From positions 33,691 through 97,690 of the IMG/VR virus record IMGVR_UViG_3300021399_000127: a stretch of 64,000 nucleotides of DNA; one strand, given 5' to 3'. The position numbers and the translations under genes were made by a program. The stretch comes from a virus (Duplodnaviria; Caudoviricetes). The number at the start of each line of letters is the position of its first letter. Within the stretch, counting starts at the first letter, position 1. Below, in pieces: positions 36,077-57,041 of this stretch. Under the pieces are notes generated by a model. That model was not told the origin of the DNA and searched no databases. It worked only from the letters and a program-made list of their open reading frames with translations.

Positions 36077-36119
36077 TAGTATGGAGGGGAATCGGACCCC
36101 TCTACAACCATTCATACTC
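36077..36119 (-). ncRNA. Minimal tRNA-like element (acceptor stem plus T-arm only)
   Basis: AGTATG...AGGGG-TCCGATT-CCCCT-CCATACT. Confidence 0.5.
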
Positions 36120-36211
36120 CAGGGATTTACTAGATCCCAGCTCCACCATGTTGCTCATACCACCATTTGATGGTTAATCGCAACAGTTCTGTGTGACTTA
36201 AGCCACTAATA

Positions 36212-36817
36212 TTAAAACGGCAGTATATTGTCGTTCTCACTACCAGATGTTGCCGGAGTACTATCTGCTGTTACAGAAGCAAGCGGATCGCTAGACTCAT
36301 CGTCTGCTTTAATCAGTCGCTCAAAAGAATCTCGAGCAAACTTCTTAATCTGTGTAGTTTCTACAGACATAGGTTCAACAAATATACCATTAGGTGATAC
36401 TGTTGTATAACCCTTCTTGTCATATACAACTTTCAGGCGAAGAGCCTTCTTTGTTGCAATCATTGGAGTAAGCTGTTCCTTAACCCAATTAATCATCTCA
36501 GAGAAAGAGTTAATCTCTTTATCCTCAATCTTATCGTAAAAACATGAGATGATTTGCATTATACGACCAAACTGAATATTGTCTCTCTTTTGAAGATCCT
36601 CATCAGTCTTAATCCACATATTCTTCTCATTCTTCCACTCTGACATAGATACGGTCTGTCCATTCTTGTTCTCGAATACGATCTCAAGAAAGTCCTTGTC
36701 TGTAGGAGACTTCTTAACATTAACCTCTTTAAGGTAGATGTCGTCATTAATACCAACTGGGATGTAGTTTGAAACAAACTCATCCACATTAATCTGCGCG
36801 TTTTTTGTACTGTACAT
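36212..36817 (-). CDS. Putative single-stranded DNA-binding protein (DUF669-like)
   Basis: Follows the AAA ATPase; beta-rich N-terminus and a flexible acidic tail ending ENDNILPF. Confidence 0.6.
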   Translation of the reverse strand: MYSTKNAQINVDEFVSNYIPVGINDDIYLKEVNVKKSPTDKDFLEIVFENKNGQTVSMSEWKNEKNMWIKTDEDLQKRDNIQFGRIMQIISCFYDKIEDKEINSFSEMINWVKEQLTPMIATKKALRLKVVYDKKGYTTVSPNGIFVEPMSVETTQIKKFARDSFERLIKADDESSDPLASVTADSTPATSGSENDNILPF

Positions 36818-36851
36818 ATTTTTATTTAGTTACTGTGTTAAACATCCGAAC

Positions 36852-37595
36852 TTACACGTTCTTATAAATCTTATCCCAATAAGTAGTCAAATTACCATCT
36901 TCGTCACCAGTAGTGATTACAATGTCTTGACCACGTAAATGAGGTGCTCTAGCTTCTTTTGGTGTTCCATCGCCACCTTTAAAGCTAATGTGGGTTTCGT
37001 TTCCTTTTCGATACAGAAATCCAACAGCATCTGCTTCGCCACATATTATGGAGCTCAGCTTACCAACTAAGTCGAGTGACATTTCTGACAACTCTTCTCC
37101 GTCTTTGTTAACCTGAGTATCCTTGACATGTCCTACTAATATGAATTCATCACATAAGTCTTTGAACATATCTATCACTTTACGTACGGCTTGTCTGATA
37201 TAGAAATATCCACCTCCATTAGGAAGTTCTCGTACATCAGAACCTTTCCAGTTTTTACCAACGGGAGATTGACGATAAAGTGTTGCTGCATAAGGCAGAC
37301 ATATTTCTTCGAGACGTGTAGCATTATCTATAGTTATGTGTCTATAGAATGCATGTCCTACTTCTGTATTCTTAGCTCTAATGGCTTGAGCAATTTCTCC
37401 TAAATCTGAAACACTACGTGCCTGAACAGCCATAGCATCTATGAATGTAGAACCACCCTCTAGATCTACTATAAGGTTGTTCTCTAGTTGTGCCAATGCC
37501 GACGTTTTGCCTGCTTTTGGACGTCCATAGATTATTAAAAACTTCGGATTAGTCGAAACTGCTGGAACTTTAGATGTAGGTAATATCAAACTCAT
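36852..37595 (-). CDS. AAA_24 / Sak4-like ATPase
   Basis: Walker A IIYGRPKAGKTS, DLEGGS, ITIDN, ILVGHVKD. Confidence 0.85.
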   Translation of the reverse strand: MSLILPTSKVPAVSTNPKFLIIYGRPKAGKTSALAQLENNLIVDLEGGSTFIDAMAVQARSVSDLGEIAQAIRAKNTEVGHAFYRHITIDNATRLEEICLPYAATLYRQSPVGKNWKGSDVRELPNGGGYFYIRQAVRKVIDMFKDLCDEFILVGHVKDTQVNKDGEELSEMSLDLVGKLSSIICGEADAVGFLYRKGNETHISFKGGDGTPKEARAPHLRGQDIVITTGDEDGNLTTYWDKIYKNV

Positions 37596-37597
37596 TT

Positions 37598-38065
37598 TTA
37601 TTTTGTTATGTTAATGTAGATGTCAATGATCTCCTTCTTACGAGAGTTAGAAAGTATATCATAGATACGCTTTGTACCCTCGTTGAGAGGAATTAGCTCA
37701 TAACCGATCTGTATCTCATCAGAGAACAGAGCGATAGGAGTACCATCCTCAAGTTTGAAATCAAAGATATCCTCATACTCATTCTTATTCTTCAGAAGCG
37801 TTGCAAGAGCCTTGCTGAATGTAGCAAAATCAGGCTTAGCAGGTGACTTCTTAGTACCAGGAAGTGTAATCTCAATATCGATAATCTTCTTTGTCTTCTT
37901 AGACGTTGCCTTAGGAGCCAAGATTATCTCATCGTCACTATCTGTATAAAGATACGGAGCAATCTTCTTTAGATTAGAAGATATAATAGAATTAATGCTC
38001 TTAGTGTAAATGTTGTTACTGGGATTCTTCTTAGTATTGTTAGTGATATCGAATGTATATGTCAT
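37598..38065 (-). CDS. Hypothetical protein
   Basis: 155-aa ORF within the operon. Confidence 0.75.
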   Translation of the reverse strand: MTYTFDITNNTKKNPSNNIYTKSINSIISSNLKKIAPYLYTDSDDEIILAPKATSKKTKKIIDIEITLPGTKKSPAKPDFATFSKALATLLKNKNEYEDIFDFKLEDGTPIALFSDEIQIGYELIPLNEGTKRIYDILSNSRKKEIIDIYINITK

Positions 38066-38082
38066 GTTTTCAGCCTTTCTTT

Positions 38083-39024
38083 TTATGATTCCATTTCAGT
38101 CTCTATCAGATTGTTATATGCAAGATCGTTTTCAAATTCAAGTATACAAGGTTTGCCAGCATCTCTATTCTTCAAGATGTGGATATACACCTTGTTCTGA
38201 GTAGGTAGACGATTTGGTCCGTATTCTTGTATGTTTAGCGTCTCTGGTCTGTGGACTACCAATACATAGTCACTTGCCTGAAATATGGAATCTGATGATG
38301 ATAAATCGCTTCGCATCGGGTAGTGTGCAGAAGCATTATTAATTCGTTCCGGAGATTCGATATTACGGTTCATCTGTGTAATTTGTACTATAGATGTCAA
38401 CGGCAATTTCTTCAATCTAATCCATACTTCTTGCAACTCACTTAAAGTCTCTAATGTAGAGCCTATTCGTTTTGTTAAAAGAGTATGATCGTATAAGATA
38501 ATAAAGTATTTGCCTGTTCCTTTCACATGTTCGTTGTAAAAGTCAACCGCTGTTTGTAATACCTGTTGAGGATTTCCTGGATCATCTACAAAGTAGATTG
38601 GATAATCTTTCAACTGATTGGAAACATCGACAATCTTCCCGAATGTTTCATCGTCGAGGTCCTGTAAAGAACTATACAACTCCGAAGTCGTTTTCCTGAG
38701 TTTGTTAGAAAACGTCCTTCCGACCTGCCTAAATCCAACCATCTCTAACGAGAAGTTAAGTATCACAACATCTTTGTCCGGATTTTTGTCAATAAGATCA
38801 GTCTGCAATTCGTTTACAAAGGACGATTTGCCACTTGCAGAAATGCCGGCTATAGTCATAACTATATTGGACTCAATACCTCCCATACACACCCTGTTTA
38901 ACTTCTTCCATCTAGTGTGCAATGAAGAAATCTTGTGTTCTTTTCTCGCCTTAATGTAGTCTACTGCTTCTTTTGTTACAGCAGACATAGGTCTATATGA
39001 GAGCTTATATGAGTTCTGTTCCAT
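38083..39024 (-). CDS. dnaB: DnaB-like replicative helicase (ATPase domain)
   Basis: IAGISASGKSS, FSLEM, ILYDH, QMNR, DLSSSDSIFQASD and ILKNR motifs. Confidence 0.9.
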   Translation of the reverse strand: MEQNSYKLSYRPMSAVTKEAVDYIKARKEHKISSLHTRWKKLNRVCMGGIESNIVMTIAGISASGKSSFVNELQTDLIDKNPDKDVVILNFSLEMVGFRQVGRTFSNKLRKTTSELYSSLQDLDDETFGKIVDVSNQLKDYPIYFVDDPGNPQQVLQTAVDFYNEHVKGTGKYFIILYDHTLLTKRIGSTLETLSELQEVWIRLKKLPLTSIVQITQMNRNIESPERINNASAHYPMRSDLSSSDSIFQASDYVLVVHRPETLNIQEYGPNRLPTQNKVYIHILKNRDAGKPCILEFENDLAYNNLIETEMES

Positions 39025-39574
39025 ATGCGTCTTGCGTCTTAGTTGTGCTGTCCTTCATCTCTTCTTCAGTTTCTTCCCATTGATGGTCTACTAACCATCT
39101 CCACATAGTCTTCATATAACCTATCTTGCCAGATCTAGTCTTTTTATCTATTTCAAAAGCAAGACAGTTGTTGATATGTTCTGCCGCAGCTGAACTTCTA
39201 CCAACGTATGTGTTATACAAATGTCTACATTTATTTACATTCGCTCTCAGATAGTTTTTAGTGCCATCTGGTCGCAGAACATAAACTGGGTACATGTCAT
39301 AGAACAAATCGAAATAGTCCTTTTCAGGCGTAATAAATTTACTCAACGTTTCGGTAGGTTCATAGACAATGGATCCACGTCTCTCTATCGACGTGATAAG
39401 TCCCTGTTGAATTAAGTATGATATTTCGTCGTCGCTAATAAGGCTGACTAACTTGCGGACGTCTTGATTATAAGTTTTTTGATTCTTATCCAATACCATA
39501 CTTAAGAAGACTAACTGATTCAAATTGATATTTGCTGATAAGTTCAGCAATTTTGTATCTAATTCTATAATCAT
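39005..39574 (-). CDS. Hypothetical replication protein
   Basis: Between PolB and helicase; FDLFYDMYP and a W-rich C-terminal motif resemble phage initiator / helicase-loader proteins. Confidence 0.6.
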   Translation of the reverse strand: MIIELDTKLLNLSANINLNQLVFLSMVLDKNQKTYNQDVRKLVSLISDDEISYLIQQGLITSIERRGSIVYEPTETLSKFITPEKDYFDLFYDMYPVYVLRPDGTKNYLRANVNKCRHLYNTYVGRSSAAAEHINNCLAFEIDKKTRSGKIGYMKTMWRWLVDHQWEETEEEMKDSTTKTQDAYGTELI

Positions 39575-39606
39575 ACTCTTATACTCAATGGTTAACAAGT
39601 AACGAA

Positions 39607-41502
39607 TTAGACTTGTGCAAACAATGTTAGCTGTCTACACTTTAGTTGCTCCGCTATTTTTGTAGCTTCTCTGATGTAATATGTATAATTGACGTGTCTG
39701 CATTTAATGTCTACATCGTCATACTTGTTTAACAAAGTAACTCCAGATTTTGTAAGTAGGTTTGTATATGACGTTTTACCGTTTTCAGTTTTTAACTTAT
39801 ACAAACAACATCCATTTGTAGATGCATAAAATCTGTTTATACGTTGTACTACTTTTCCGTTATATTCTACTTTGAATTTCTTATCCACACGCTGTCCCAT
39901 GACAAATTTACGTATGTCATCGCATTTTGTTATTGTGTCTTTAACAGGAACACCGTTTATAAGATAATTTATTACAGCTTCTGGTATAATGACTGGTGCA
40001 AGCCCTTTACCTAATTGAGTATCTGTAATAAACATACCTTTCTTTTCTATCAGATTTGGATTTCTGGACTGAGAATATCCTTCTTTGACACCAACATAGT
40101 CATTGACTGCGTACTGATAAAACGCTTCATAATGTTCGCCTTCGAAAGAGAGCTGTGTGAGTTGCTCAAGTTCAGCAACCGATTCTTGCAAATTGCTTTC
40201 AATTTCCTTTTTTGCAACAAACATAACACCGTCTGTGTTCACCTGCACAATCCTGCAGTTATACTGTAATAATATGTCAACCAACATCAATAATACCAAT
40301 TGACCATTGATACGTATTTTGAACACACTAAATGGATCATACATCCAACTAGTCTCCTCTTGCATTTTCCCTGTAACAGAATTAAGAGTCAATTTTAGAG
40401 CCAGATTCTTAAGCTTCTGTCCATTATGCTTCGCCTCAAGCCTCTCCTTATACAGTTGAGTGTAGACGTCGATTCCTGCTTTGCCTAAGTGCCTAGGAAA
40501 CCACCCATAGCGCACAATGAATGACGGATACATAGATGCTACATCAAGATGTCCGATGTATTCGTCTTCTTTAGGCACGAATGTTTCCGGTGTGTTTAGC
40601 GAATGGATTCCGCCAACTCCTACCGAAAACCGCGTATTTGAGAGGACAAACTCCTTCTCATAGCCTTTGCGTTCTCTTGAATAGACTACAGTGCTCTTCA
40701 TCTCTTCAAGAACTGATTGTAATATTGGATTTTTATACGATATGATAGGCAATATCACATCTTTAAGTGGTATGTAATCCATAGGTGAACGCATTTCTTT
40801 TAATTTCTTGTAGCTTATATGTAATTGCTCACATATCTTCTTAGACAAAATACGTTCTCCGAACTTCACGCTATCCATAGAATAAGCGTTAATTCCATAT
40901 TCTTCTTCAATCCACTTTCGTAGCTCGTAGTCGCCTTGTTTTACCAACTTCTCAAATAACTCATGTGTTGAATTTACATCATTGATGTTATATTCAACCA
41001 TTACTTCCACGTCATCTGCAGGTATAGGCTTACTAAAATCTCCCTCGTACTCTAACACATTTGGATAATGCATTGTTAATTGCATCTCTTTTAATCCCAC
41101 TCTTAGTTTACTTGAGTACATTAATGTGAGTATATCGATAGATTCAAAGAAGTTCATGTACATCCACTTTTTATACCTATCTCTATTTTCATCTCCTTGG
41201 ATTAGTAATTGAGATAGGTTGGATAAAGAAATACATCCTTGAGTATATGATAGGCTTTTAAACTTAGAACCATAGTCTATGATGTAATTTAGGATAACAT
41301 CATCATAATGATGATTGTTGTACCCAGCGAACAACAAAGATTTGTCTAAGAAATAGTCTATCAATTCTTCTATTTGGTTTTTCCTCATTGAGTATTCAAA
41401 CTTTTTTAGTTCGTTTGTCTCTGTGTTTTTACAGACACAATGAAAACAATTTGGAAAAACCTCTATGTCGAATATAACGACTTGTTTGTTGTGTATTAAC
41501 AT
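39607..41502 (-). CDS. Family B DNA polymerase
   Basis: Exonuclease FDIEV and GYNNHHYDD; polymerase DVASMYPS, KLTLNSVTGK and NTDG. Confidence 0.93.
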   Translation of the reverse strand: MLIHNKQVVIFDIEVFPNCFHCVCKNTETNELKKFEYSMRKNQIEELIDYFLDKSLLFAGYNNHHYDDVILNYIIDYGSKFKSLSYTQGCISLSNLSQLLIQGDENRDRYKKWMYMNFFESIDILTLMYSSKLRVGLKEMQLTMHYPNVLEYEGDFSKPIPADDVEVMVEYNINDVNSTHELFEKLVKQGDYELRKWIEEEYGINAYSMDSVKFGERILSKKICEQLHISYKKLKEMRSPMDYIPLKDVILPIISYKNPILQSVLEEMKSTVVYSRERKGYEKEFVLSNTRFSVGVGGIHSLNTPETFVPKEDEYIGHLDVASMYPSFIVRYGWFPRHLGKAGIDVYTQLYKERLEAKHNGQKLKNLALKLTLNSVTGKMQEETSWMYDPFSVFKIRINGQLVLLMLVDILLQYNCRIVQVNTDGVMFVAKKEIESNLQESVAELEQLTQLSFEGEHYEAFYQYAVNDYVGVKEGYSQSRNPNLIEKKGMFITDTQLGKGLAPVIIPEAVINYLINGVPVKDTITKCDDIRKFVMGQRVDKKFKVEYNGKVVQRINRFYASTNGCCLYKLKTENGKTSYTNLLTKSGVTLLNKYDDVDIKCRHVNYTYYIREATKIAEQLKCRQLTLFAQV

Positions 41503-41533
41503 TGACTCATGGTTCTAGTTAATTGTTTATTAT

Positions 41534-42493
41534 TTATGCTGCTAATCCGAATCGTAACATGTCGTCATAATATACTGATGCACGTACGTTTCCGTACATA
41601 TCTACAACTTTAAGACCTACATTATTAGACGAAAGTCTTGTTATTCTAGATATACGATTCTGAATAGTATTATTGCTATCTGAAATCCTCATACCAACAA
41701 GAGGATATCCGTATACATACGGATTTGCTTCTACGAAAGAATACACATCTCCTGTTGCACAATGTGTACTGTTTTGTAACACGTGCTTGTGTAGAACATA
41801 CAGAGATAACTCTTCTGGTTTGTATACATGTCCGTTACAATATTTATTGCTCAACATGTTTCTAAAGTTTTCTGTAGCTTTTGTCCTTCGTAATTCCCAT
41901 TCCTTTTGTAAAATGTCAGGAAACAAGAAAGACTTAAGCTCTTTCTCTGTTGGTTGAGGATTTTTACGCTCCCATTTCTGCAACTTATGCCGTTCGTATG
42001 CGTGACATTTTGCTGCTACGCCATGCGGGATTGTATTTTTTGGACGTGTTTTGTAGATAGGCTCGTTTGTCTTTACGTCCCATAACAAACGTCCTTTGCT
42101 ATCCTTTTTTTGAACTGGCTTACCATACAGATCTTTTATAACCTCTGTATTGATGGTTGCCAACTCTTTTTTGGACAATCTTGGTGGAAGTTTAAGTTTT
42201 CCAGACTCTTGTAGCTTCCTAAGGTTTTTAGCATAGTTTGGATTCGGCTTTGGAACATCATCCTTTATACCGAGAGAATGCTTTACAGATACGTAAGAAT
42301 TCAACTTATGCTTATAACCTTGTACTGAAACTTTTGGTGCTTTGAAGTCACGAATCAGCATATCCAACTGCTTTACTTTAAGAAGTTTAGCAAATTGACG
42401 TCCACGTTCGGTGTTCATCCACTTCTTCAATTCATCAAGTTCCTTATATTGTTTATTGAGGTCTTTAAGCCTCTCTGTTATTGTCTTCTCCAT
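41534..42493 (-). CDS. Hypothetical basic protein ending in GLAA
   Basis: 319-aa Lys-rich ORF. Confidence 0.75.
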   Translation of the reverse strand: MEKTITERLKDLNKQYKELDELKKWMNTERGRQFAKLLKVKQLDMLIRDFKAPKVSVQGYKHKLNSYVSVKHSLGIKDDVPKPNPNYAKNLRKLQESGKLKLPPRLSKKELATINTEVIKDLYGKPVQKKDSKGRLLWDVKTNEPIYKTRPKNTIPHGVAAKCHAYERHKLQKWERKNPQPTEKELKSFLFPDILQKEWELRRTKATENFRNMLSNKYCNGHVYKPEELSLYVLHKHVLQNSTHCATGDVYSFVEANPYVYGYPLVGMRISDSNNTIQNRISRITRLSSNNVGLKVVDMYGNVRASVYYDDMLRFGLAA

Positions 42494-42522
42494 ATTGATT
42501 ATGTTTTTAAATTAATAAAAAA

Positions 42523-42592
42523 TGGTAGTTATAGTCGGTCTCGATCCAACTCTCTTCTGTATATACAGAGAGCGCCCAAAGCATATATAACT
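42523..42592 (-). ncRNA. tRNA-like element with CCA end and no anticodon loop
   Basis: AGTTATA...GTTGG-ATCGAGA-CCGAC-TATAACT-A-CCA: perfect 7-bp acceptor and T-arm; central arm CTGTA-TA-TACAG. Confidence 0.65.
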
Positions 42593-42604
42593 TTTGTATT
42601 ATTG

Positions 42605-42805
42605 TTAATTACCGTAAAATACAGATGTATCTATCATCTCAAATCCTCCTGCACAGTATTTACAATTTTCTGTACATTGTTTACAACTTCTGCGAGTTTG
42701 TAGTTTACGTTCCGTAAGAGCCTTTTTTCTCAAGCGTTCGTCTACGCGTTTAGCTTGCCTACGTGAATATGTTTTTACATATCGTTCTCCATTATATATA
42801 AGCAT
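42605..42805 (-). CDS. Small Cys-rich hypothetical protein
   Basis: 66 aa with CKQC..NCKYC. Confidence 0.5.
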   Translation of the reverse strand: MLIYNGERYVKTYSRRQAKRVDERLRKKALTERKLQTRRSCKQCTENCKYCAGGFEMIDTSVFYGN

Positions 42806-42957: not shown

Positions 42958-43512
42958 TTATAACATTAGATCTTTAATATCAGACATATCGTTATCTGTT
43001 ATAGAAATGGTAGCTGAATCATTGAACGATGCAAGCTTCTCGTCTATCTTATTGATCTCGAGCTGAAGTTTGTTTTTTATTGCTGTAATCTTAGCAGAAG
43101 TAAAGGTCTCTGTCTTACCAGTACCCTTCTTACCAGCCTTAGCTTTAGCTGCTGGATTTATAGTAGCCTTCTTGAGAATCTCTTCCCAGTGTGCAAGCTG
43201 TTCCTTAAGCTCACAAGCCTTGTATATGTTATAGTAATGAGTCTTCTTAGCTTCCTCGTAGTTAAACTCAGTAATGCCACTATTGATAGCGTTCAACATA
43301 AGTTTAATCTTAATAAGATTCTCAGACATCTGAAGTATCTTATTATGAAGTACTGCAAGATCCATACCAGAACCCATACCAGCCTTCTTAGCTTTAATGG
43401 ACATCACGTTCTCAGACTTAATGATACGCCAGTATCGAGTCTTAGTCTTACAAATGAGATCACGTGTATTAATAATATCCTTTGAAGTAAAAATGTTTGA
43501 TTTCTTGTTCAT
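42958..43512 (-). CDS. Hypothetical helical protein
   Basis: 184-aa ORF with AT-rich leader. Confidence 0.8.
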   Translation of the reverse strand: MNKKSNIFTSKDIINTRDLICKTKTRYWRIIKSENVMSIKAKKAGMGSGMDLAVLHNKILQMSENLIKIKLMLNAINSGITEFNYEEAKKTHYYNIYKACELKEQLAHWEEILKKATINPAAKAKAGKKGTGKTETFTSAKITAIKNKLQLEINKIDEKLASFNDSATISITDNDMSDIKDLML

Positions 43513-43567
43513 ATATTTTGATTTTAATTAGACTTCTAGTTATATGAATTTGAAATCGTCTACCTAG

Positions 43568-43621
43568 TCCCCCTATGTGGTCTCGAACCACGTGGTTCCG
43601 CCCGTTCGCTGCGGTAGGGGG
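43568..43621 (-). ncRNA. Short tRNA-like element (acceptor stem plus T-arm)
   Basis: CCCCCTA...GTGG-TTCGAGA-CCAC-A-TAGGGGG-A. Confidence 0.55.
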
Positions 43622-43756
43622 TTATAGAAAGAAGATGCGGGTTTCCCCACACCTTCTCTATATATAGAGTTTATTCCAACTTCTAATCACAAATGTAACA
43701 AAGCCTTTTGTTTCAGATGTAATTGAGTCGTTGTCAAGGCTTTTGTAATCTCCTGA

Positions 43757-44323: not shown

Positions 44324-44929
44324 TTACTCATCTACTTCAACATGAACACGAACCTCTTTCTTACCATCGAGCTGACGATAGTAGTTCTCAGAACTCTGAG
44401 TATTACGCTCCTCAGTTGTCTCGATCGCCTTGTCGATCTTCTGAAGCTCTTCAATGAGAGCGCTGACACGTGCACGCTCCTTAGCATTTTCAGCGTTCAG
44501 GAACTTGCTCAGTTTCTTGCCAGAAGAGAAGAAAATGTTGCTACCACCGTCCTTGTTGAGAGCCTTAGTGATGTTCTCAACATCCACTTCTGTGGTAATA
44601 TCGTGCTTGGTAATTGGACAACGAACCTCGATGTCCTCGTTAGCCTCGTCTACGAGACCTTCGTTAATAACGATCTCATAATCGTCATCGATGCCCTTAC
44701 GTAGGGCGAGAGATGTGATATCGATACCAAGAACCTTATAACGGTTAATGTTACGATTCAGGAACAAGTCCTTGTTGTGGTTTGCCTGCTCAAGACGAGA
44801 GGCAAAGTCAATTATGACTGGGGTCTTAACGGCCTTGAAAATGCGACGACCGTAGAGGTTACCAAACGCAGTGAGGTTTGGACGATTTTCCTCAACGATT
44901 TGTACGTTGATTTTAGTGTTATTATTCAT
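44324..44929 (-). CDS. Hypothetical protein
   Basis: 201-aa ORF with strongly biased codon usage. Confidence 0.8.
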   Translation of the reverse strand: MNNNTKINVQIVEENRPNLTAFGNLYGRRIFKAVKTPVIIDFASRLEQANHNKDLFLNRNINRYKVLGIDITSLALRKGIDDDYEIVINEGLVDEANEDIEVRCPITKHDITTEVDVENITKALNKDGGSNIFFSSGKKLSKFLNAENAKERARVSALIEELQKIDKAIETTEERNTQSSENYYRQLDGKKEVRVHVEVDE

Positions 44930-47049
44930 GTTTTCTTATCCTTTTTGATATCGTGGTTGATTCCACCAACGATAAGATTAATACTATGTAGGACTTTCAC
45001 CTACGTTAATTTAAAAAAGTTGTATTGCTGTACTAGTTTATTATATATCCAACGTGCTTTTTACCTAAGCACCGCTTTAAACTGTGCGTCATTCAGCTTT
45101 ATATTCCTTACGCCCCCAATTAGTGGTATATGAAGCTCAATCACTGAAGTCGGGAACCCAATGGTAGGGTTAGCTATGCCCATCGACACAGTCCGTGTTA
45201 CCGGAAAGCTATGAAAGGCAGATAGTAGTTCATCTACTAAACGTCATACAGCTATGTTTCAGTTATTTAATGAAATAATAAGATACAGCATTACTCGAGT
45301 TGTACATCGCCTGATGTACAAAGCGCTCTAAAGTTTCAAGAATCGTGGAGGGTTCACTAGTTGAGCTGTTGTCTTTTGCCAATATGTCTGATTTACAGTT
45401 TACTCTGGATATGCAGTTTTCTCTGGAGGTGATAGTTTATTACGCTGGCTATCACGCCTCGTTCCTGTTTTATTTAGAACAAATATATCTTCCAAAGGAT
45501 ATACTTAATCTTACGTGAGGAGTACGTTTCTTTATCGAACTATCTAAGAGTTGCTGTGCTCTTTCAGGTACTTGATTTAAAATTCTTTCTCAGCGATACT
45601 ACGGCCTGTTTTCTTCTCTTGGCAGGTGCTGCCTCATTTGTTTATAGTGCGCGAATATTCCGATTTCAACGGATACCATTATAGCCCTCGGTACGTTGTT
45701 ACACCCGATTCTTGTGCTCGTCATCCCATCTGTCGATTTTTCAGACACCAATGGGAATCGGCTCTGATATTCTCTATAGAGACAGTATAGACAATACGCT
45801 AGGTATTAGGTTCTGACTTTCGTGTTACATATGTACTTGCACATACATATTTTACCACCTGTCTACCCAATAACGGTTGGCACTCAGCTTCCTCACCTCA
45901 GTACTCCCTACTTACAACGTAGGCTTTTCCCTATGAGGGGACACTAATTTTTGTTAAACATGTTAATGACTTATTTTATAAGTAGTTTTATTCTACTCCG
46001 ATGCAATCGTATTCCTATCTACTGGACTTATACTGTTCACAACTTCTTTTTATTTCCATACAGGATAGATGTGTGTTCAATATGTTGTAGTAGGTCCAAA
46101 CATGCTTTACGGCATTAGTGGATCTCTTTTACCACTGGAATGTGGCATGTCGAATCATCCTAATGTGCGTCTTTTTCCTCTAGACACAGAAGAGTTGTAT
46201 GACTTAGTAGACATACTTATTCCCATTTTCCCTAATAAATCAAGTCACAATGTGTTTATTAGTTCTATCATCAGTCTTATGTACGCGGACTCGTGTCGCT
46301 CTGTCTTGCATTGACAGCCAATCATTCAACTTTTATATACCGCATGAACGACGAAGGCCTGGCGGTTTTGATTCCTCTGTGGATAGGCACTGGATTTGCA
46401 CCAGAATGGACTTACATAGGCAGCATATTTACCATACACTACAAGGTAGACTCCTTGCTCAATTAGCCGTTTTACCCTCTTATTCCCATACCTAAGATTC
46501 ATCTAATTTCTCCTTTCATAATACAGATTGGACTCTGTATGAACACTAGAGGTGACATTTGTTAATTCCACATCACAACAGGTCTGGAGTCTGTTGTGGG
46601 TTGCTCGTGTTTGGTTACCAATTATCGTCTGTGGAAAACGATAAAGATTGTCGATACCTGTAACAGTTTTGCTTTTCTTAAGTCTTATGTGTCTTCCGCC
46701 ATATAATCGCCAGTACGGTTCTCATTATACTTTGAGGGGTTGTTACAGACACTCACCCCTATACAAGGTGGTTTTTCACGCCACTCGTGTCTTCCATCTT
46801 ACCTTTTGAGCTCTATTTTCAAGCTTTATCGCCATCTAGAGATGGTTTACATATTCTCAGATCAAGTATACAATCTAATGCCTACCATACATGTCTTCAA
46901 ACGATAACATAGTGACATGGAGGAGAATCGAACTCCTCGACATTAGTCGACACAGGTTAATGAGACCTGCTATAAGTCTAACACTGGGTTTCTTCCAGTA
47001 GCTCCTCTATGCCGATAATACGACACAGAGGAGCACCAGCTGGGATATA

Positions 47050-47430
47050 CTAACGGATTTCAGATATCGGTTCAAAGAAACCATGTATCTCATACCTTTT
47101 TCGAGCAGGTAGAGTATCTGGAGGTGTTCCCTTCCGAGCCTCACGAACGCTATCAAGTTTAATTGGAGCTGAAACATGATCAAACTTGTCGTAAGATGTT
47201 CGCTTACTCTTACGATATTTTGGTTTTACTTTAACAATTACACGCTCCCTCACAGTATCCTTTTTGATTACTGTGTCTGTGTCATGTATTGCTATTGGAT
47301 TTAGTACTGAAGCAAGAGAATTATTCTCACTTGCAGTTATGGTGTTTTGTTTTATAGGATTGGTTGTTCCAACAAAAGCACCATATGCGCATAATAATGC
47401 GCATGCTAACACTGTAGTGATATTCTTCAT
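47050..47430 (-). CDS. Hypothetical secreted/membrane protein
   Basis: MKNITTVLACALLCAYGAFVG signal-like start; ends at TAG. Confidence 0.65.
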   Translation of the reverse strand: MKNITTVLACALLCAYGAFVGTTNPIKQNTITASENNSLASVLNPIAIHDTDTVIKKDTVRERVIVKVKPKYRKSKRTSYDKFDHVSAPIKLDSVREARKGTPPDTLPARKRYEIHGFFEPISEIR

Positions 47431-47568
47431 AACTTTGATAGTTTTAATAGCCGTATAGCCACATCTCAAACTTTTTAAACGGCCAGAGGAAAAACTCTTT
47501 TAATCTGCTTAATGGCTCGCGATTTCCTTTAAACACACTTTTTGAGAGCCTTTTCTTCTTGAGAGTGG

Positions 47569-50871: not shown

Positions 50872-50929
50872 GTCTTTGCAGGTTTACACCCAAAGGGTGG
50901 GCACTTTCGCAGTTCCCGCGTGACTTAAA

Positions 50930-51260
50930 CCCCCGAAGGGGACCACTTACGCTACGTTAGTGTAGTCAACAATATTGTTAATATTGCCAGTTAATTGTTT
51001 TCGACCTAATAATGATGTACTCCACTGTGTAATCAAATCCAATTTACCCCCATTAAAAGCCCCCGAAGGGGCAAACGTATGCTTTACGAAAATAAGTACA
51101 TATGAAAATATAAATACACATTAACCAAAACTAAATTTATAGACACACTAATAGGTAATAAAATAGCATACGTTTTGGTGGAGGTAGAGCGATTCGAACG
51201 CTCGTCTTACACAGCTTTATAATCTAAAGGTCTTTAGGTCCTACATGCGCGGCCAAACGC
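50930..51260 (-). ncRNA. ssrA: Circularly permuted (two-piece) tmRNA; tag (A)GNINNIVDYTNVA*
   Basis: Acceptor piece ...CTGTGTAAGACGAGCGTTCGAATCGCTCTACCTCCACCA ends at 51176. Coding piece GGGGGTAAATTGGATTTGATTACACAG starts downstream at 51051. 7-bp acceptor with G3.U70; TTACACAG/CTGTGTAA helix; tag frame 50988-50947. Outer boundaries approximate. Confidence 0.85.
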
Positions 51261-51727
51261 ATATAGGCGAATTGATATTGTATTCAACAATCTATCAATA
51301 ATGTCTTCAGACGTCTCCTACAACAGTATTTATAAACTATTGTATACAAGATCAATCAGAGATTATATCGTGTTGAATAACGGCTTATAGCTCTTGTTAC
51401 GCACGTGATCGGTTCTTGAAAACATCATGAGGAAGCCACGGACCCAATTGTCAAACGTCAGACTTCCAGCCTCAAGGGTCGCATGATTCGAGTTTGATAT
51501 AAGCACATTTACACCTGTGTTGGTGGTTCCGCCAGTACTGGCTTATAGCTCTTGTACTTAGTGTTAATTCACTATTGTTGCATGCCCGACGGTACTATAG
51601 GTCTTTCATCCGAACTCAACCATGTCTAAGCATGCTCAATAACTGCATCAATGTGTCTGTATTGTTGGCTTGATGGATAACTAATATTCACCCTTTTTGA
51701 AATCAGCCATGAATGGCTCAACGGTGA

Positions 51728-52198
51728 TTACCAGTTGTAGCGGCGACGCTCATACTCCCACTCGAATGAGTAGTATGTTGGATAGTTGTCGCGGAGCTCC
51801 TTAATGTGCTCATTGTTCTCGCGTTCGATCTGGTCGAAGGTTTCGCCCTTCTTCTTGTCGACTTCCTTGAGCTTCTTCTTATACTCTGTAGGAGTCAACT
51901 TACCAGTCATGATGTCGTCAAGGAGCTTCTTAGACTCTGTAAGAGCATCCTTAGTCGCAGCTTCTTCTTTACGACGTTTGCGGAGTTCCAAGAGCTCACG
52001 TTTGTTGACGTAATCAGCCATCTGCATGATGTTCATCAACTCGTTGCGTTTCTTCTCGTCCTTCTCCTTCTGGATCTGCTCTTTCGCAGCCTTGACGTTC
52101 TCGTCTTCGAACTTGTTTTCGTCCTTGATCTGATCTACGATGTCCTTTGACTCTGCAGCTTCTGCTGCTGGCTTTGTCTCTTTCTTGTCTTTTGCCAT
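51728..52198 (-). CDS. Hypothetical coiled-coil protein
   Basis: 156-aa E/K-rich ORF. Confidence 0.85.
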   Translation of the reverse strand: MAKDKKETKPAAEAAESKDIVDQIKDENKFEDENVKAAKEQIQKEKDEKKRNELMNIMQMADYVNKRELLELRKRRKEEAATKDALTESKKLLDDIMTGKLTPTEYKKKLKEVDKKKGETFDQIERENNEHIKELRDNYPTYYSFEWEYERRRYNW

Positions 52199-52355
52199 AA
52201 TTCTTTGATAGATTTTAAATGGTTAATATTAAAAATGTTTAATTTTTATGTTGATGATATAATCATCATCTTCATAAATTTTTGTGTGCTTTTTAGGTTT
52301 TTGCACTACTAAACGAGCTCGGTGGGATGGTCCGTATTCGTTTTTAAATGTCTTC

Positions 52356-52808
52356 TTAGTCATGATCTAACCATGAATTGTAGAGTTGAGTTATAATACT
52401 TCTAGTGGTCTCTGTAAACCCATATTTCTTAGCGATCTTTGCGCTTACAGGTGACCCTTGTGCAATAAAGCTACAAGACGCCATAAATGCAGGATCTGCA
52501 CCATGGTCGGTGAGACCCTTTATTATGTCTACAGCGAGCTTATCTATACTAGAAATATCTCTACAATATTCAGCTAGATATATGACTGAAGAATCACCGT
52601 TTTCTGTATAGTTATTCCTAGATACAGTTACCGGTGATTTTACTGACTCTGCAAGAACTTGACAGAGTTTTGAGAATCCTATTGTCTCAACTTTAACGGT
52701 TGATTGATCCTCAATAAACGATGCCTGTTCTAGCATCGCTTTGATTTGCTTACGATTGGGAGTTGTTCCGTCGTAAAGGATTACAATAGCTTTTGTTTTT
52801 GTCTCCAT
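52356..52808 (-). CDS. Hypothetical protein
   Basis: 150-aa ORF, in frame with the upstream gene across TAG-AGC-ATG. Confidence 0.75.
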   Translation of the reverse strand: METKTKAIVILYDGTTPNRKQIKAMLEQASFIEDQSTVKVETIGFSKLCQVLAESVKSPVTVSRNNYTENGDSSVIYLAEYCRDISSIDKLAVDIIKGLTDHGADPAFMASCSFIAQGSPVSAKIAKKYGFTETTRSIITQLYNSWLDHD

Positions 52809-52811
52809 GCT

Positions 52812-53336
52812 CTAATCTCCGTTTATGTGTATGGTTAGACCTTTTGTAGGATGTGCTTTCGATGAATCCTTTTCTGCCGCTCGATGTTGTGTATTATCTA
52901 TAGGCGGTATAGATTGATCATCTGAACTTTGATGCGACCCTCGATATTCATCTATAGGATTCTTCTTTAGGGTACTGTCAGCTGAGTCATACACATCCTT
53001 ACTGGTTTCGTAGGTACTTATAAATGTGGTGTAATCAACATACCCAAAACTATTTATAGCCTTATCGGCTATTATTGCTACAGTTTTTGGTTCCATTGTG
53101 TTTATGATACTAATAGCTGATAACCGATTGGCATCATCTTTAGAATCCACAATGAACTGATCACTGTTTGTGTACTTTGGGAAAGCCACGTTTTCAGCAA
53201 TACCTACAATTTTAAGTGAATCTTTGTCACTAAGGGATGCTTTAAGCACACCTGTTGACGTTAGAGCTACTGTAGCTCCTACGCTCACTATTGCTGACAT
53301 TAATACCAGCAATAGGGCTGAAATTAAATTCTTCAT
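52812..53336 (-). CDS. Hypothetical membrane-anchored protein
   Basis: N-terminal hydrophobic helix; TAG stop. Confidence 0.75.
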   Translation of the reverse strand: MKNLISALLLVLMSAIVSVGATVALTSTGVLKASLSDKDSLKIVGIAENVAFPKYTNSDQFIVDSKDDANRLSAISIINTMEPKTVAIIADKAINSFGYVDYTTFISTYETSKDVYDSADSTLKKNPIDEYRGSHQSSDDQSIPPIDNTQHRAAEKDSSKAHPTKGLTIHINGD

Positions 53337-53480
53337 AACTTTTGATAAGTTTTAATTAAATGAATAAATTGGTTGTTGCCCTCTCCTCGTTTCACATCCA
53401 GGGGTTGAGGTTTCCTGGTAATACTCGAGTTCTACAACAGTACAGGGTGATGGACCTAAGCCCACCATCCTGTAGGGAAT

Positions 53481-53618
53481 TTAGTCAAACAGATCTTTCA
53501 ACACTTCCTCCATATCTTCAACGATATCGGCCGCATCCTCATCGCTGTCAAATGTGGTGTATTGTTGACACCTGATATAGATGTCATGTAATTGTTGTAT
53601 CTGTCCTTGAGAGATCAT
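53481..53618 (-). CDS. Small acidic hypothetical protein (45 aa)
   Basis: ATG overlaps the upstream TAA (TAATG). Confidence 0.45.
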   Translation of the reverse strand: MISQGQIQQLHDIYIRCQQYTTFDSDEDAADIVEDMEEVLKDLFD

Positions 53619-53923
53619 TACTTCACAACAATGTTTTTAGCAACAAATCCACTCTTGTCCTTTGAACCAATAGCAATCGCCTTGAGTTTAGCACCATGCT
53701 TCTTGACAAGTTTTTGTTTTTCGAAAGAAGCCTTGTTTGTTGCCACGAGTTCACCCTTGTAGATGACATAGTACTTCGTAACCTTCTTGCCCTTAGCGTT
53801 GGTTGACTCTGACTCAATCCAATTGGTGATATCGCCATTGTTTACAACAATTGTGTCTTTGGTTGCTGCTGACATTGAAAGTGCAGCACATGCAATTACT
53901 GCAGTAATAAAAAGCTTTTTCAT
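53618..53923 (-). CDS. Hypothetical secreted protein
   Basis: Signal peptide MKKLFITAVIACAALSMSA. Confidence 0.75.
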   Translation of the reverse strand: MKKLFITAVIACAALSMSAATKDTIVVNNGDITNWIESESTNAKGKKVTKYYVIYKGELVATNKASFEKQKLVKKHGAKLKAIAIGSKDKSGFVAKNIVVK

Positions 53924-53949
53924 AACTTTGATAGTTTAATTTTTGGTTG

Positions 53950-54411
53950 TTAAAGTGTTGTGACGCCAAATAACATCACGTGTAAGTTGTTGTCTTTGTC
54001 TACTGTACGCAATGAATTCTGAAAGCTGACATACACAATTCGATTGCGAAAATACAGTTTAAGATGCTTTATACCAAGTGTCTTAAACGCAATATACACA
54101 TCGTTGAATTTGTCAGCATCGAATTTAAGTTGCATCGGTGGTAGACTGCTTGTAAGGCTATCTATTATACTACTCGATACCGTTTTACGTAACATTTTGA
54201 GTCGTATGAGCTCACTTTTCCTAAAATAATGCTCACATTCTTCGTCATGAGTAATACCATTAACAATTTCTCGGGCGTAGACTGCACCCTTGTTCTTGGC
54301 GTTAACTACTACATAATAGGGTCCGATCGGCCTTTCGTACCCCCTTGGTTTGAGTCGTACAAGATCACCTTGTTTTGCTTTTAAGCTTCGTTTGTTGTTT
54401 AGTGCGCACAT
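53950..54411 (-). CDS. Hypothetical protein
   Basis: 153-aa ORF. Confidence 0.65.
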   Translation of the reverse strand: MCALNNKRSLKAKQGDLVRLKPRGYERPIGPYYVVVNAKNKGAVYAREIVNGITHDEECEHYFRKSELIRLKMLRKTVSSSIIDSLTSSLPPMQLKFDADKFNDVYIAFKTLGIKHLKLYFRNRIVYVSFQNSLRTVDKDNNLHVMLFGVTTL

Positions 54412-54429
54412 TTTTAATAATTTTGATAA

Positions 54430-54600
54430 TTATTTTGTTACTATGAAGCGCCCCTTCCAGTCTGTATAGACTTTCTGGAGCACTTCTTTTCTTCTCATAG
54501 CTGCATAATATGATAATTTTTCAAACAATAACATAGAACAGCCATTCTTCTTGAAATAGACTCGATATAACTCTTTGTCTTTCTTATTCCGTAGTTTCAT
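54430..54600 (-). CDS. Small basic hypothetical protein (56 aa)
   Basis: MKLRNKKDKELYRVYF... fills the intergenic gap. Confidence 0.5.
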   Translation of the reverse strand: MKLRNKKDKELYRVYFKKNGCSMLLFEKLSYYAAMRRKEVLQKVYTDWKGRFIVTK

Positions 54601-54799
54601 AGTGTTGTGTTTTCGTTGAAAAATACTTTATCGTATCATTAGCTGCATTAGTAGAATCTATACGATTGGTTAAGTCGTATAGATCTAACTTTATGTCTTC
54701 GATCTCCCTTTCTACTATGTTTATTCTTATTATGTTGCTAATGAGATAAACTGCAATAGAAATTAATGCTATCCACAGACTCCATTTTTCTTCTTTCAT
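54584..54799 (-). CDS. Small membrane protein
   Basis: 71 aa, one TM helix, ATGA coupling. Confidence 0.65.
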   Translation of the reverse strand: MKEEKWSLWIALISIAVYLISNIIRINIVEREIEDIKLDLYDLTNRIDSTNAANDTIKYFSTKTQHYETTE

Positions 54800-55317
54800 C
54801 GTTCTACTTGAATTTTTATTGGAACTTTTCCGTCTGATAAGTCATACATCAACAACGCATCTAGCAAATCATTCAGCTCTTGTTCATTGTCCAAATAAAC
54901 AATGCCTTTGTCCTGTTTGAGCTGAGATTCAATAGACATACAGTCACCATGCTTTACAAATCTGCCGAATAGACGTACTACTGCTTGAAATACGTTATTA
55001 TCATCTATATTTGTAATAGTGACTTTTATATTCTTCTTGTCAGTTTGCTTAGATGAACGTTTTCTGTACTGAACAGGCTTGTCTCGAACCTTTCCCTCTT
55101 CGACAACTTTTGCAGATTTAATATCATCTGGTATAACTCTTGTCAGGAATAATAACAGTTGTTCCAGATGCTTTGCGAGAGCTTTTGCTAGATCATATGC
55201 GGTTTCTTCTGTTACCGAGGCTAATGCGCTTTGCCATTCACCTATTACTTGAAAATCTTTTTCGTTGAGTGTCAAAGTTACTTCTTCGACATTAACCTTT
55301 TTGCTTACTAATTCCAT
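54796..55317 (-). CDS. Hypothetical protein
   Basis: Start placed at MELVSKK, just after the upstream stop. Confidence 0.7.
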   Translation of the reverse strand: MELVSKKVNVEEVTLTLNEKDFQVIGEWQSALASVTEETAYDLAKALAKHLEQLLLFLTRVIPDDIKSAKVVEEGKVRDKPVQYRKRSSKQTDKKNIKVTITNIDDNNVFQAVVRLFGRFVKHGDCMSIESQLKQDKGIVYLDNEQELNDLLDALLMYDLSDGKVPIKIQVER

Positions 55318-55319
55318 AC

Positions 55320-55535
55320 TCAATAGTTTTTGTAGACAACTGTAAATAAGCGTATAGCTAATGCTACGAGTATTGTGCACAGTGTAATCATTGTCGGATT
55401 AAAATACTCGCATGGGAGAACACATATTGGTATAAACCATAGGAATGCAGCTATAGATAGAACCACAATAAACGAGCATATAATGCCCGATTCTTCATTA
55501 AAGGCAAATGCCAATAATTTTTTAATCTTTTTCAT
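55320..55535 (-). CDS. Small membrane protein (two TM)
   Basis: 71-aa hydrophobic ORF with TATCAAA leader. Confidence 0.65.
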   Translation of the reverse strand: MKKIKKLLAFAFNEESGIICSFIVVLSIAAFLWFIPICVLPCEYFNPTMITLCTILVALAIRLFTVVYKNY

Positions 55536-55562
55536 AACTTTGATAGTTTTTTGTGATTTGTT

Positions 55563-55850
55563 TTATTCAAACAATTTGTTTATTTCTTTTGTTATGTTGT
55601 CACGATGTTCTGACTCGTCAGACAGTAAAGTATTGTATTCCAGTTCGATCGAGTGCATTTGTTCAATTGTGTCTGTAATATTCTTTTTTCCTTCAATAAA
55701 TTCTTTATTAAGTATTTTTAAATCTTTGTATTTTCTAATTAGTATTTTTACATACTCGCGATACCTTTTTAGATCACATATTGTCATCATTTGTGCACGA
55801 TCTAGTGTGTTTACACATGCTTTTACTTCTTTGTTTATTCTTTTACTCAT
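55563..55850 (-). CDS. Hypothetical protein
   Basis: 95-aa ORF. Confidence 0.65.
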   Translation of the reverse strand: MSKRINKEVKACVNTLDRAQMMTICDLKRYREYVKILIRKYKDLKILNKEFIEGKKNITDTIEQMHSIELEYNTLLSDESEHRDNITKEINKLFE

Positions 55851-55897
55851 TTTTCTTTTGCCGGTTTGATAATCTGTTGGCTCTTCAGGCTCTAATT

Positions 55898-56167
55898 TTA
55901 TTTAAACGTAAGCGTACATGAGTCGTATTCAATAGTTTCTGAAGTGTCTGTTTCATCCTTCTTTTCGTCCCATTCTTTTTCTTCTTTGTGCCACATTCTA
56001 AGAAGAAAAACCCATCCGATTACGCCTGCTAGAAGACCAGAATAAGAACATACCAATGAGATACTTGCAAACAGTTCATACTGTTCTGTAATTATGCCTG
56101 CTATTATACTTATTATTGCTAATATTACCAAAATAAGCGCTGTATATAATGAGATTTTCATACGCAT
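55898..56167 (-). CDS. Small membrane protein (two TM)
   Basis: 89 aa; two hydrophobic helices and an acidic tail. Confidence 0.65.
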   Translation of the reverse strand: MRMKISLYTALILVILAIISIIAGIITEQYELFASISLVCSYSGLLAGVIGWVFLLRMWHKEEKEWDEKKDETDTSETIEYDSCTLTFK

Positions 56168-56538
56168 TCCTCCTCTATCACGAGATCGTTGTCTAATTCA
56201 TCACTAGGGATAACATATTTACCATTTTTTGCATAGGTCTCTATTTCATCGTCCTCACCATCCTTTTTTTGTATTAGTACAACAATAGGATATTCATCTG
56301 AGTTACGATCGAAACACAAAATACGAACGTTGCGTCCGTCTCTTGTCACAACTTTTGCGCCTTGTTTTGCTTTTTCAATATCAAAAGGTATTGTTCTGAC
56401 AGTCGGTTTTTGCTGCTCGTTTGCCTCTTTAAGAGCATTTTCAACTCTAGTACTCAACTCATCAATAGTATGAGTCATTGTTTCTTTAAGGTCGTCTAAT
56501 TCTATTAACAAACCTTCTAATTTTTTCAAATCTTTCAT
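56158..56538 (-). CDS. Hypothetical phage protein
   Basis: PFDIEKAKQGAKVVTRDGRNVRILCFDR motif of a common Bacteroidota phage family. Confidence 0.75.
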   Translation of the reverse strand: MKDLKKLEGLLIELDDLKETMTHTIDELSTRVENALKEANEQQKPTVRTIPFDIEKAKQGAKVVTRDGRNVRILCFDRNSDEYPIVVLIQKKDGEDDEIETYAKNGKYVIPSDELDNDLVIEEECV

Positions 56539-56739
56539 AATTTGTTGTGATAGTATTTATGCTGTTATCTGCAGCTTTATTTAGCTTTAAATTGATAATC
56601 AAAAGAAAACACACCTATCTTCACAGACGAGTGTGTTGGTGCATAAACACGTTTCACAACGTATTCTTGCTTTTTCATTAATGGTCCGAAATGTGTAATA
56701 ACCAACAATAGGTAAAAATAAAAGCTGTTTTAAGAATAG

Positions 56740-56851
56740 TACCGCCAATCGGATTCGAACCGATATACACTATAGAGTTATGAGTATAAATTTGGGGCGG
56801 TTTTTAGCTGATCGGCCAGCTGATGTGTATTTCTCCAACTAGAATGACGGC
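56740..56851 (-). ncRNA. tRNA-like element with enlarged central domain
   Basis: GCCGTCA/TGGCGGT acceptor, TTCT/AGAA D-like stem, ATACAC/GTGTAT stem, ATCGG-TTCGAAT-CCGAT T-arm; contains CTCATAA but not in a canonical anticodon arm. Confidence 0.6.
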
Positions 56852-56945
56852 ATAAACAGTACATATCTTCACAGACGTGTACTGTAAACATGAAAACGCT
56901 TTTTCATGGCATGGTTCATGAAAGAAATTTGCCCAAATGCATTGT

Positions 56946-57041
56946 TCCTCACCGCAGAATCGAACTACTTCCCGTTTCGTGACGGCAAATGACCCAAACT
57001 ATACCGTTTCCCTTTTAGCATAGTTTTTATCATAGTGAGGG
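56946..57041 (-). ncRNA. Degenerate tRNA-like element
   Basis: CCTCACT/GGTGAGG acceptor and GTAG-TTCGATT-CTGC T-arm; non-canonical interior. Confidence 0.45.

Follow-up and report, generated by a model that had tools for sequence, protein, structure and literature searches.

The stretch analysed here, called the window throughout, comprises 64,000 nucleotides (bases 33691-97690) of the 97.7-kb virus record IMGVR_UViG_3300021399_000127, which carries direct terminal repeats. In DNA polymerase the phage shares 74% identity with Dulem virus 42 and 64% with the crAssphages cr131_1 and cr130_1 (Crassvirales, Suoliviridae, Oafivirinae), and it is a crAss-like gut phage of the Suoliviridae. With code 11 the late genes on the plus strand are broken up, and at genome position 1945-2016 there is a tRNA whose anticodon is CUA; the two findings are consistent with TAG recoding. 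The subject of this study is a set of five short tRNA-like elements, E1 to E5, all located on the minus strand inside a standard-code block that encodes primase, an SSB-like protein, a Sak4-like annealing protein, helicase, DNA polymerase and a sigma-like factor. Fold z-scores, minimum free energy (MFE) statistics and scores for two covariance models, R1 and R2, are given below with the elements and with three further features that enter the argument. R1 was built from nine equal-length members of the gene junction, or slot, that holds E2, and is specific to that element.

35813-35893, minus strand: additional member, cloverleaf-like, with a 14-nt loop containing CUCUAAA on the anticodon stem; Rfam tRNA score 23.6 bits (cut-off 29), R2 21.3 bits.
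36074-36118, minus strand: E1, a 45-nt minihelix by fold prediction, with a 6-bp acceptor, 11-nt GG-containing linker, 6-bp T-stem, UCCGAUU loop and ACAA tail; R2 58.7 bits.
42523-42592, minus strand: E2, 70 nt by fold prediction, with a 7-bp acceptor, GG linker, closed hairpin in place of the anticodon arm, 5-bp T-stem, AUCGAGA loop and ACCA tail; R1 21 bits, E 0.012.
43545-43566, minus strand: conserved motif TAGGTA..ACGA..TCAAATTCA, read from the sequences, directly 3' of E3 in the leader of gene 42958-43512.
43568-43621, minus strand: E3, 54 nt, with a 7-bp GC-rich acceptor, small hairpin, 4-5-bp T-stem and UUCGAGA loop; fold z = -2.5, or -4.8 including the upstream hairpin.
46910-46958, minus strand: candidate element with T-arm GAGGAG-UUCGAUU-CUCCUC and an ambiguous acceptor; R2 25.3 bits, E 5e-4.
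56740-56801, minus strand: E4 in its short form, 62 nt, with a 6-bp acceptor, 9-nt linker, 9-bp hairpin, perfect 5-bp T-stem and UUCGAAU loop; fold z = -3.0, MFE frequency 0.41; R2 (trained on other sites) 20.3 bits, E 0.009.
56946-57041, minus strand: E5, a 96-nt four-way junction with a 6-7-bp acceptor, long hairpin, short hairpin with a 6-nt loop, 4-bp T-stem and UUCGAUU loop, without a 7-nt anticodon loop; fold z = -3.8, and 1 of 200 shuffles folds as well.

By fold prediction, the acceptor helix of each of the five elements is coaxial with its T-arm, giving 11-12 stacked pairs capped by a 7-nt T-loop (UUCGANN, AUCGAGA or UCCGAUU). A preliminary description of this DNA had singled out these five acceptor/T-arm structures, and all of them fold as described and fall below tRNA-calling thresholds. 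E4, which it placed at 56740-56851, reads better as the 62-nt form; the acceptor of the 112-nt form, made of five Watson-Crick and two GU pairs spanning 111 nt with a D-loop-like UUGGAG inside, lies within chance. Taken alone, the fold z-scores of E1 and E2 were unremarkable.

ARAGORN called only tRNA-Met, tRNA-Gln and a permuted transfer-messenger RNA (tmRNA) in the window, and none of E1-E5. Against the Rfam tRNA model RF00005, E1, E2, E3 and E5 gave no match at E <= 10, and E4 (14.7 bits) scored, like 35813-35893, below the gathering cut-off of 29 bits, as did family members in six relatives. No Rfam family covered these elements. By the criteria of a cloverleaf, a 7-nt anticodon loop and a 29-bit score, E1-E5 are not tRNAs.

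Enrichment of the T-arm was measured with a strict scanner, which accepts an NTCGANN loop on a 4-5-bp stem and asks for a flush acceptor, using 200 dinucleotide shuffles as the null. The minus strand contained 16 T-arms, 11 with a flush acceptor, and the plus strand 3 and 2, respectively, compared with 2.8 +/- 1.9 T-arms and 1.4 +/- 1.2 with an acceptor (maximum 6) in the shuffles. The motif is enriched about 6-fold and on the gene strand only, a genuine and strand-specific signal. Of the 11 with a flush acceptor, two are real tRNAs and a third is probably a chance match because it lies inside an open reading frame (ORF). A looser scanner accepting any T-loop-like motif gave 13 matches against 8.3 +/- 3 in shuffled sequence, which was not significant, and the NTCGANN test was used instead. 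In the window, R2 recovers E1, E4, 35813-35893 and 46910-46958 and misses E2, E3 and E5; a single covariance model for all five was given up, neither R1 nor R2 covering E1-E5. The late third of the genome contained no element, its top R2 match reaching 14.2 bits.

The history of the elements was followed in 80 loci of relatives, retrieved from viral contigs with the DNA polymerase at 54-77% identity and referred to by L numbers where single loci must be told apart. Gene order is conserved among these loci; the junctions of E1, E2 and E3 are traceable across them, and as many as about 35 related Suoliviridae contigs have homologues at the corresponding junctions. PHROGs and Pfam gave no match for the flanking proteins p184, p182, p319, p201b and a 508-aa protein.

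E1 follows the SSB-like gene (36212-36817) and a hairpin motif with GGTGGAG. In relatives, the slot after the SSB-like gene and the conserved GGTGGAG-plus-hairpin motif holds the same minihelix of 6+6 pairs, its linker varying from 10 to 63 nt; a conserved 63-nt insert occurs in L032, L036 and L041. In a plain MAFFT alignment of nine members, which was not fitted to structure, 108 of 108 cells were paired and 8 of the 12 pairs had changed on both sides, while controls with slid partners gave 45-62% pairing and 0-1 such pairs. Model R2 returned 50 matches, all on the gene strand and 93.7% paired. Elsewhere a tRNA for Leu, Trp, Gln or Asn takes the E1 slot, usually with some 24 nt between it and the start of primase. 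The neighbouring 35813-35893 element is 88-95% identical in relatives with a DNA polymerase less than 60% identical, and is thus strongly constrained.

Nearly all relatives also carry, just past the stop codon of p201a (the SSB-like gene), the sequence (GGTCAG)TGGTGGAG followed by a hairpin of variable sequence and then CCC, standing immediately 5' of the tRNA or tRNA-like element (about 36125-36150 and 35894-35904 in the window, both on the minus strand). No Rfam family was found for this hairpin motif downstream of the SSB-like gene. Many relatives additionally have tandem units beginning GGTCAGTGGTGCTGACAACCA.

E2 lies directly 3' of the stop codon of the p184 homologue and ends 30 nt ahead of the start of gene 41534-42493; the distances to the next start codon given in the preliminary description, about 30 nt for E2 and about 56 nt for E3, were both reproduced. 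Nearly every relative has a 48-74-nt element in this slot, composed of an acceptor, a near-invariant GG linker, a variable hairpin and a T-arm, and R1 found 35 of them at the junction after the p184 homologue, E2 itself included. The acceptor sequences are diverse (AGTTATA, TGCCTTA, GAGCTTA, GATCAG., GGCTAG., TAGTTTG and others), each accompanied by its complement. In the R1 alignment 92.5% of cells were paired, compared with 61% after shuffling and 31-47% with partners slid, and 103 cells carried double changes against 31. A first MAFFT alignment, which split the 5' acceptor strand, had been replaced by the equal-length seed and model-based alignment. Many E2-type elements begin 3-20 nt past the stop codon, with 21-57 nt left between their end and the next start. 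Three relatives have a true tRNA-Gln in this slot instead. The encoded CCA noted earlier is indeed present after E2, but it is not conserved, relatives having ACAA, ACCG, ACAC or ACAT at this position, and the ACCA tail is incidental. Ahead of the gene after the E2 slot, a pre-start motif, ACATAATCAATATG or CATTATCAAAATG, is kept family-wide and may be a clade-specific translation-initiation context.

The E3 slot, between the p182 and p184 homologues, differs in content from relative to relative. A minihelix occupies it in the window, L006, L007, L008, L011 and L012; L014 and L015 have a cloverleaf whose anticodon loop is closed; and true tRNAs occur as well (Gln in the L023 group, Leu in L011 and L012, Thr in Dulem virus 42). 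Seven unrelated acceptor sequences occur in this slot, all of them paired, and two double compensatory changes separate the element of L006 from that of L008. Irrespective of which tRNA or tRNA-like element occupies the slot, the motif TAGGTA..TCGAATTCA follows it in nearly all relatives. In the window, a strong hairpin (43625-43680) stands ahead of E3. The more distant loci L036-L065 show several hairpins instead of a minihelix, with loops repeating UGCGG or UCGAGG (e.g., CTTGCGGGA, TATCGAGGTA) on covarying stems; these may represent a repeated motif, in RNA or DNA, for protein binding.

The preliminary description had proposed a covariation analysis across related phages. Acceptor and T stems covary strongly in the E1 and E2 families, with compensatory changes throughout, and its reading of intact pairing under divergent sequence as selection is borne out. 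Outside the helices, only features of the tRNA elbow (the T-loop and the linker GG) are conserved in these two families. The slots conserve a tRNA-shaped object and not a decoder.

Across the relatives, 233 distinct T-arm motifs were found on the gene strand and 45 on the opposite strand, with only 40 lying within ARAGORN-called tRNAs. Strict acceptors outnumbered decoys on the gene strand (92 vs 40) and not on the opposite strand (8 vs 9), and 83 of the 92 strict elements were intergenic. The end of the element falls 10-30 nt before the next ATG-started ORF in 35 of 82 cases, compared with 10% of random intergenic positions; for real tRNAs the proportion is 14 of 49. Past the acceptor, 49 of 83 elements continue as ACAA, ACTA or ACAT, the same discriminator-C-A/T-A context as in the phage's real tRNAs.

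The acceptor/T-arm half of tRNA is the part recognised by RNase P, RNase Z and the CCA-adding enzyme, which accept minihelix substrates, and it is this half that selection has kept in the elements. The observed structure, selection on pairing, conservation of slots, interchangeability with tRNAs, strand and intergenic bias and common 3' context suggest that the elements are, on balance, probably cis-acting tRNA-like processing signals, i.e., phage 't-elements', for host RNase P and RNase Z. Amongst the three functions that the preliminary description had put forward, mRNA punctuation, decoys for tRNA-targeting toxins and mimics of uncharged tRNA, the first best matches this anatomy of co-directional, intergenic, tRNA-interchangeable elements with a common 3' context. 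Many elements lie 3-20 nt past a stop codon and 20-57 nt ahead of a start codon, which leaves no space for a promoter or terminator of their own; they must be co-transcribed with their neighbours and, if recognised at all, would be cut from the message. Genome protein searches found neither a PolyA_pol/CCA-adding enzyme nor an RNase Z-type Lactamase_B_2 protein encoded by the phage, so any processing would be left to the host.

In the mechanism that we infer, the elements would be embedded in polycistronic early and replication transcripts. Each retains what tRNA-maturation enzymes of the host recognise: the 12-layer stack of acceptor and T-stem, the T-loop, the discriminator A and a 3' trailer of the phage-tRNA type. 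The usual linker GG could dock on the T-loop and form an elbow. A cut by host RNase P at the 5' edge would leave the upstream message with a very short 3' UTR (untranslated region), and a cut past the discriminator by RNase Z or another 3'-end pathway would give the downstream message a short, defined leader; both cuts together would separate the neighbouring cistrons. A real tRNA in the slot would perform the same job, which would explain why tRNAs and anticodon-less forms swap among relatives. A wider proposition, which we hold tentatively and rate somewhat short of probable, is that the early and replication junctions of this clade are built around a tRNA-shaped slot, that whatever fills it is excised by host RNase P and RNase Z, that gene expression is organised by a mitochondria-like punctuation, and that the tRNAs in these slots are partly or mainly processing signals. 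Excision from the slot would set the 3' terminus of one message and leave the next with a short leader, often of 20-30 nt and up to about 60.

Several observations weigh against the punctuation reading. The spacing to the next start codon is not uniform, being 56 nt at E3 and more than 100 nt in many E2-slot cases. The large conserved inserts of some members, such as the 63-nt insert in L032, L036 and L041 or the 14-nt loop at 35813-35893, are left unexplained by punctuation. The elements counted across relatives are phylogenetically related, and the counts overstate the number of independent events. In the cultured Bacteroides phage crAss001 (L101), no convincing R2 match was found besides a tRNA, and the tRNA-like layout is restricted to this clade; the search for a cultured phage among the relatives that bears such elements found none. 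Finally, E4 and E5 are singletons in a cluster with its own repeated hairpins and could be stand-alone RNA genes.

The strongest alternative, which we consider unlikely, is that the elements are released from the transcript to work in trans as stable small RNAs, processing being only the way in which they are freed. They could then serve as decoys or sponges for tRNA-binding factors, such as tRNA-targeting toxins of the host, EF-Tu, modification enzymes or the CCA-adding enzyme, or they could mimic uncharged tRNA. The top half of tRNA is a recognition surface for many tRNA-binding proteins, which fits such a role, as do the conserved inserts of some members, which processing alone would not need, and the position of E4, E5 and 35813-35893 in small-RNA clusters beside real tRNAs and not between tightly packed genes. 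Plant t-elements, moreover, can accumulate as stable RNAs (PMC1920247). However, trans-acting RNAs usually keep specific loops, whereas the E1 and E2 families conserve only generic features of the tRNA elbow, and the conservation of slots relative to genes suggests action in cis. Anticodon nucleases require an anticodon loop, which the elements lack, and no partner protein came to light, the genome searches finding no TROVE/Ro60, CCA-adding enzyme or RNase Z-type protein.

A cis role that involves no cleavage, as a stabiliser of the upstream 3' end, as a protective or ribosome-loading structure at the downstream 5' end, or as a pause site or terminator, seems rather improbable. The many elements that end 10-30 nt ahead of a start codon, the conserved leader motif after E3 and the T-run that follows E2 in the window would all suit it, but that T-run is shared with two relatives only and is not conserved in the rest of the family. 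A stabilising hairpin would need no T-loop, GG elbow partner, discriminator A or tRNA-type trailer, and it would not swap with real tRNAs, which are certainly excised. Intrinsic terminators were rejected, with no conserved U-run after E2 and none after E1, E3, E4 or E5.

A last reading, which we hold very unlikely and which concerns mainly E4 and E5, is that the elements are functionless, decaying pseudogenes, relics of tRNA genes that tend to enter intergenic sites tolerant of insertion. In its favour, some relatives have normal tRNAs in the same slots, as the preliminary description had anticipated for decay, E4 and E5 lack homologues and lie beside a real tRNA-Gln, and low-scoring tRNA pseudogenes are mentioned in another Crassvirales report. 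Decay would, however, break the pairing, yet 92-100% of cells are paired with abundant compensatory double substitutions between phages whose DNA polymerases are 54-77% identical, the altered or missing part is always the D and anticodon domain, and the 12-layer stack length is maintained. For E1-E3, covariation argues against neutral decay.

Amongst documented systems, the closest is the t-element of plant mitochondria, a signal by which RNase P and RNase Z are directed to cleave at the ends of mRNAs (Forner et al. 2007, PMC1920247). As in t-elements and mitochondrial punctuation, the phage elements have a non-canonical tRNA-like fold, with the acceptor stacked on a T-arm of the GGTTCRANYCC type with a canonical T-loop; they lie on the same strand as the coding regions beside them, and they are interchangeable with real tRNAs as putative signals. 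They differ in belonging to a phage of Bacteroidota-type hosts and not to an organelle, and in forming families at fixed gene junctions with covariation; transcript ends have been mapped for the plant elements, whereas the phage elements are known here from sequence. The present case adds the interchangeability of slots with several tRNA identities, the common 3' context, the start-codon spacing and two covariance models. Literature searches on crAss-like phages and tRNA-like RNAs, and on tRNA-like intergenic elements in phages, found no description of such elements.

Other RNAs share parts of this design. The species 1 RNA of T4 and the precursor of the C4 antisense RNA of P1/P7 are reportedly phage or plasmid substrates of RNase P with a tRNA-like top half. 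Like the elements, they are said to be phage-encoded non-tRNA transcripts with an acceptor/T-like helix recognised by RNase P, but they are single genes that yield a functional RNA, whereas the genomes considered here each carry many elements, placed at gene junctions and conserving only generic tRNA features. The tRNA-like domain of tmRNA likewise combines an acceptor and T-arm with a reduced D-loop analogue and has no anticodon arm. E1-E5, in contrast, measure 45-96 nt and lack an mRNA-like domain, a tag reading frame and pseudoknots; identity with this domain was ruled out by size, by the absent reading frame and by the lack of a model match to E1-E5, the Rfam tmRNA models matching only 50947-51224. 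The alanine determinant G3:U70 was present in neither of the window elements read for it (E2 and E4).

Theta (HDV-like) ribozymes, which occur 3' of gut-phage tRNAs, offer a route for processing tRNA regions in TAG-recoding gut phages of Bacteroidota, and the CCA tail is encoded in only 4.5% of the tRNAs associated with them (Kienbeck et al. 2024, PMC10879173). The tRNAs and elements described here resemble those tRNAs in lacking an encoded CCA. Theta ribozymes are self-cleaving. The trailers here are short and AT-rich (AT-rich or below 35 nt for E1-E4). In a unit of tRNA and theta ribozyme, an HDV-like fold would begin no more than 5 nt from the tRNA 3' end. General HDV-family models gave no match in 34000-58500 at E <= 10; they include no dedicated theta-ribozyme model, and the 115-nt spacer that follows tRNA-Gln was covered by them alone. 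Bacterial Y RNA (YrlA) is comparable as a non-coding RNA, also of phages, with a tRNA-mimicking module of acceptor, T-arm and D-arm, but the elements have no Ro-binding stem. A Y RNA was rejected, as TROVE/Ro60 (PF05731) was not found in the whole genome with positive controls. The 508-aa neighbour protein is unrelated to crAss001 gp96.

If the punctuation reading is true, a way of organising messages that has until now been a hallmark of mitochondria, tRNA punctuation, would also operate in very abundant human and animal gut phages, and would answer in part, apart from codon usage, why phages carry tRNA genes. Current annotation overlooks these RNAs, as well as real tRNAs at the same junctions, and sometimes puts spurious small ORFs on top of them; in GenBank records of relatives the elements are unannotated or overlaid by a 30-aa ORF. 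In the public record of Dulem virus 42 (L098, PP511876.1), where regions 5060-5330 and 5885-6003 cover the E2 and E3 slots, a 93-nt hypothetical coding sequence (CDS) is drawn over the tRNA-like element of the E2 slot, and the apparent tRNA-Thr(UGU) in the E3 slot has no RNA feature. Models R1 and R2 offer a concrete means of mapping the family.

The cluster containing E4 and E5 is headed by a true tRNA and includes three related hairpins.

57159-57229, minus strand: true tRNA-Gln(UUG), called by ARAGORN and Rfam.
56616-56629, 56864-56877 and 57242-57255, minus strand: three hairpins with the identical 14-nt loop CGTCTGTGAAGATA on different complementary stems.

Two of these hairpins end 4-5 nt ahead of tRNA-Gln and of the long form of E4, and the loop has no further occurrence in the window. 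For E4 and E5, a DNA search of five close relatives returned only tRNA-Gln, and two degenerate pattern scans of viral contigs returned nothing; the 126-aa protein beside them matched only four distant loci. In the close relative L090, hairpins with a TTCGTGAGAATAG loop and T-runs (about 1180-1215, 1410-1445 and 1635-1665) stand beside a tRNA-like element, a tRNA-Gln and a gene start. The CGTCTGTGAAGATA and TTCGTGAGAATAG hairpins may represent a clade-specific terminator, promoter or protein-binding hairpin.

The candidate at 46910-46958 has an MFE fold that prefers other pairings and a possible counterpart at L008:4611-4707. It lies in a 2.1-kb stretch without a credible ORF (44930-47049, minus strand) between genes 47050-47469 and 44324-44929. 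The T-arm at 35092-35115 belongs to a split tRNA-Leu(UAA) and falls outside the tRNA-like class; the halves of this tRNA (35091-35722, minus strand) are about 550 nt apart, and its 7-bp acceptor halves, ACCACTA and TAGTGGT, match. The Rfam group I model gave no match at E <= 10 to the insert, parts of which are conserved in L063 and L074.

In crAss001 (1683-5807), real tRNAs lie 2-19 nt from the small CDSs gp6, gp7 and gp8, an abutment compatible with tRNA punctuation by true tRNAs. The same phage has a TROVE (Ro60-like) gene beside a 900-nt non-coding gap. In the window, the permuted two-piece tmRNA at 50947-51224 (minus strand) was called by ARAGORN with the tag GNINNIVDYTNVA and scored 47.1 with Rfam tmRNA_permuted, against a gathering score of 47. 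A full-model match to the twister-P1 ribozyme at 58353-58412 (minus strand) is sub-threshold, with 39.8 bits against a cut-off of 67.2 (E 1.2e-5).

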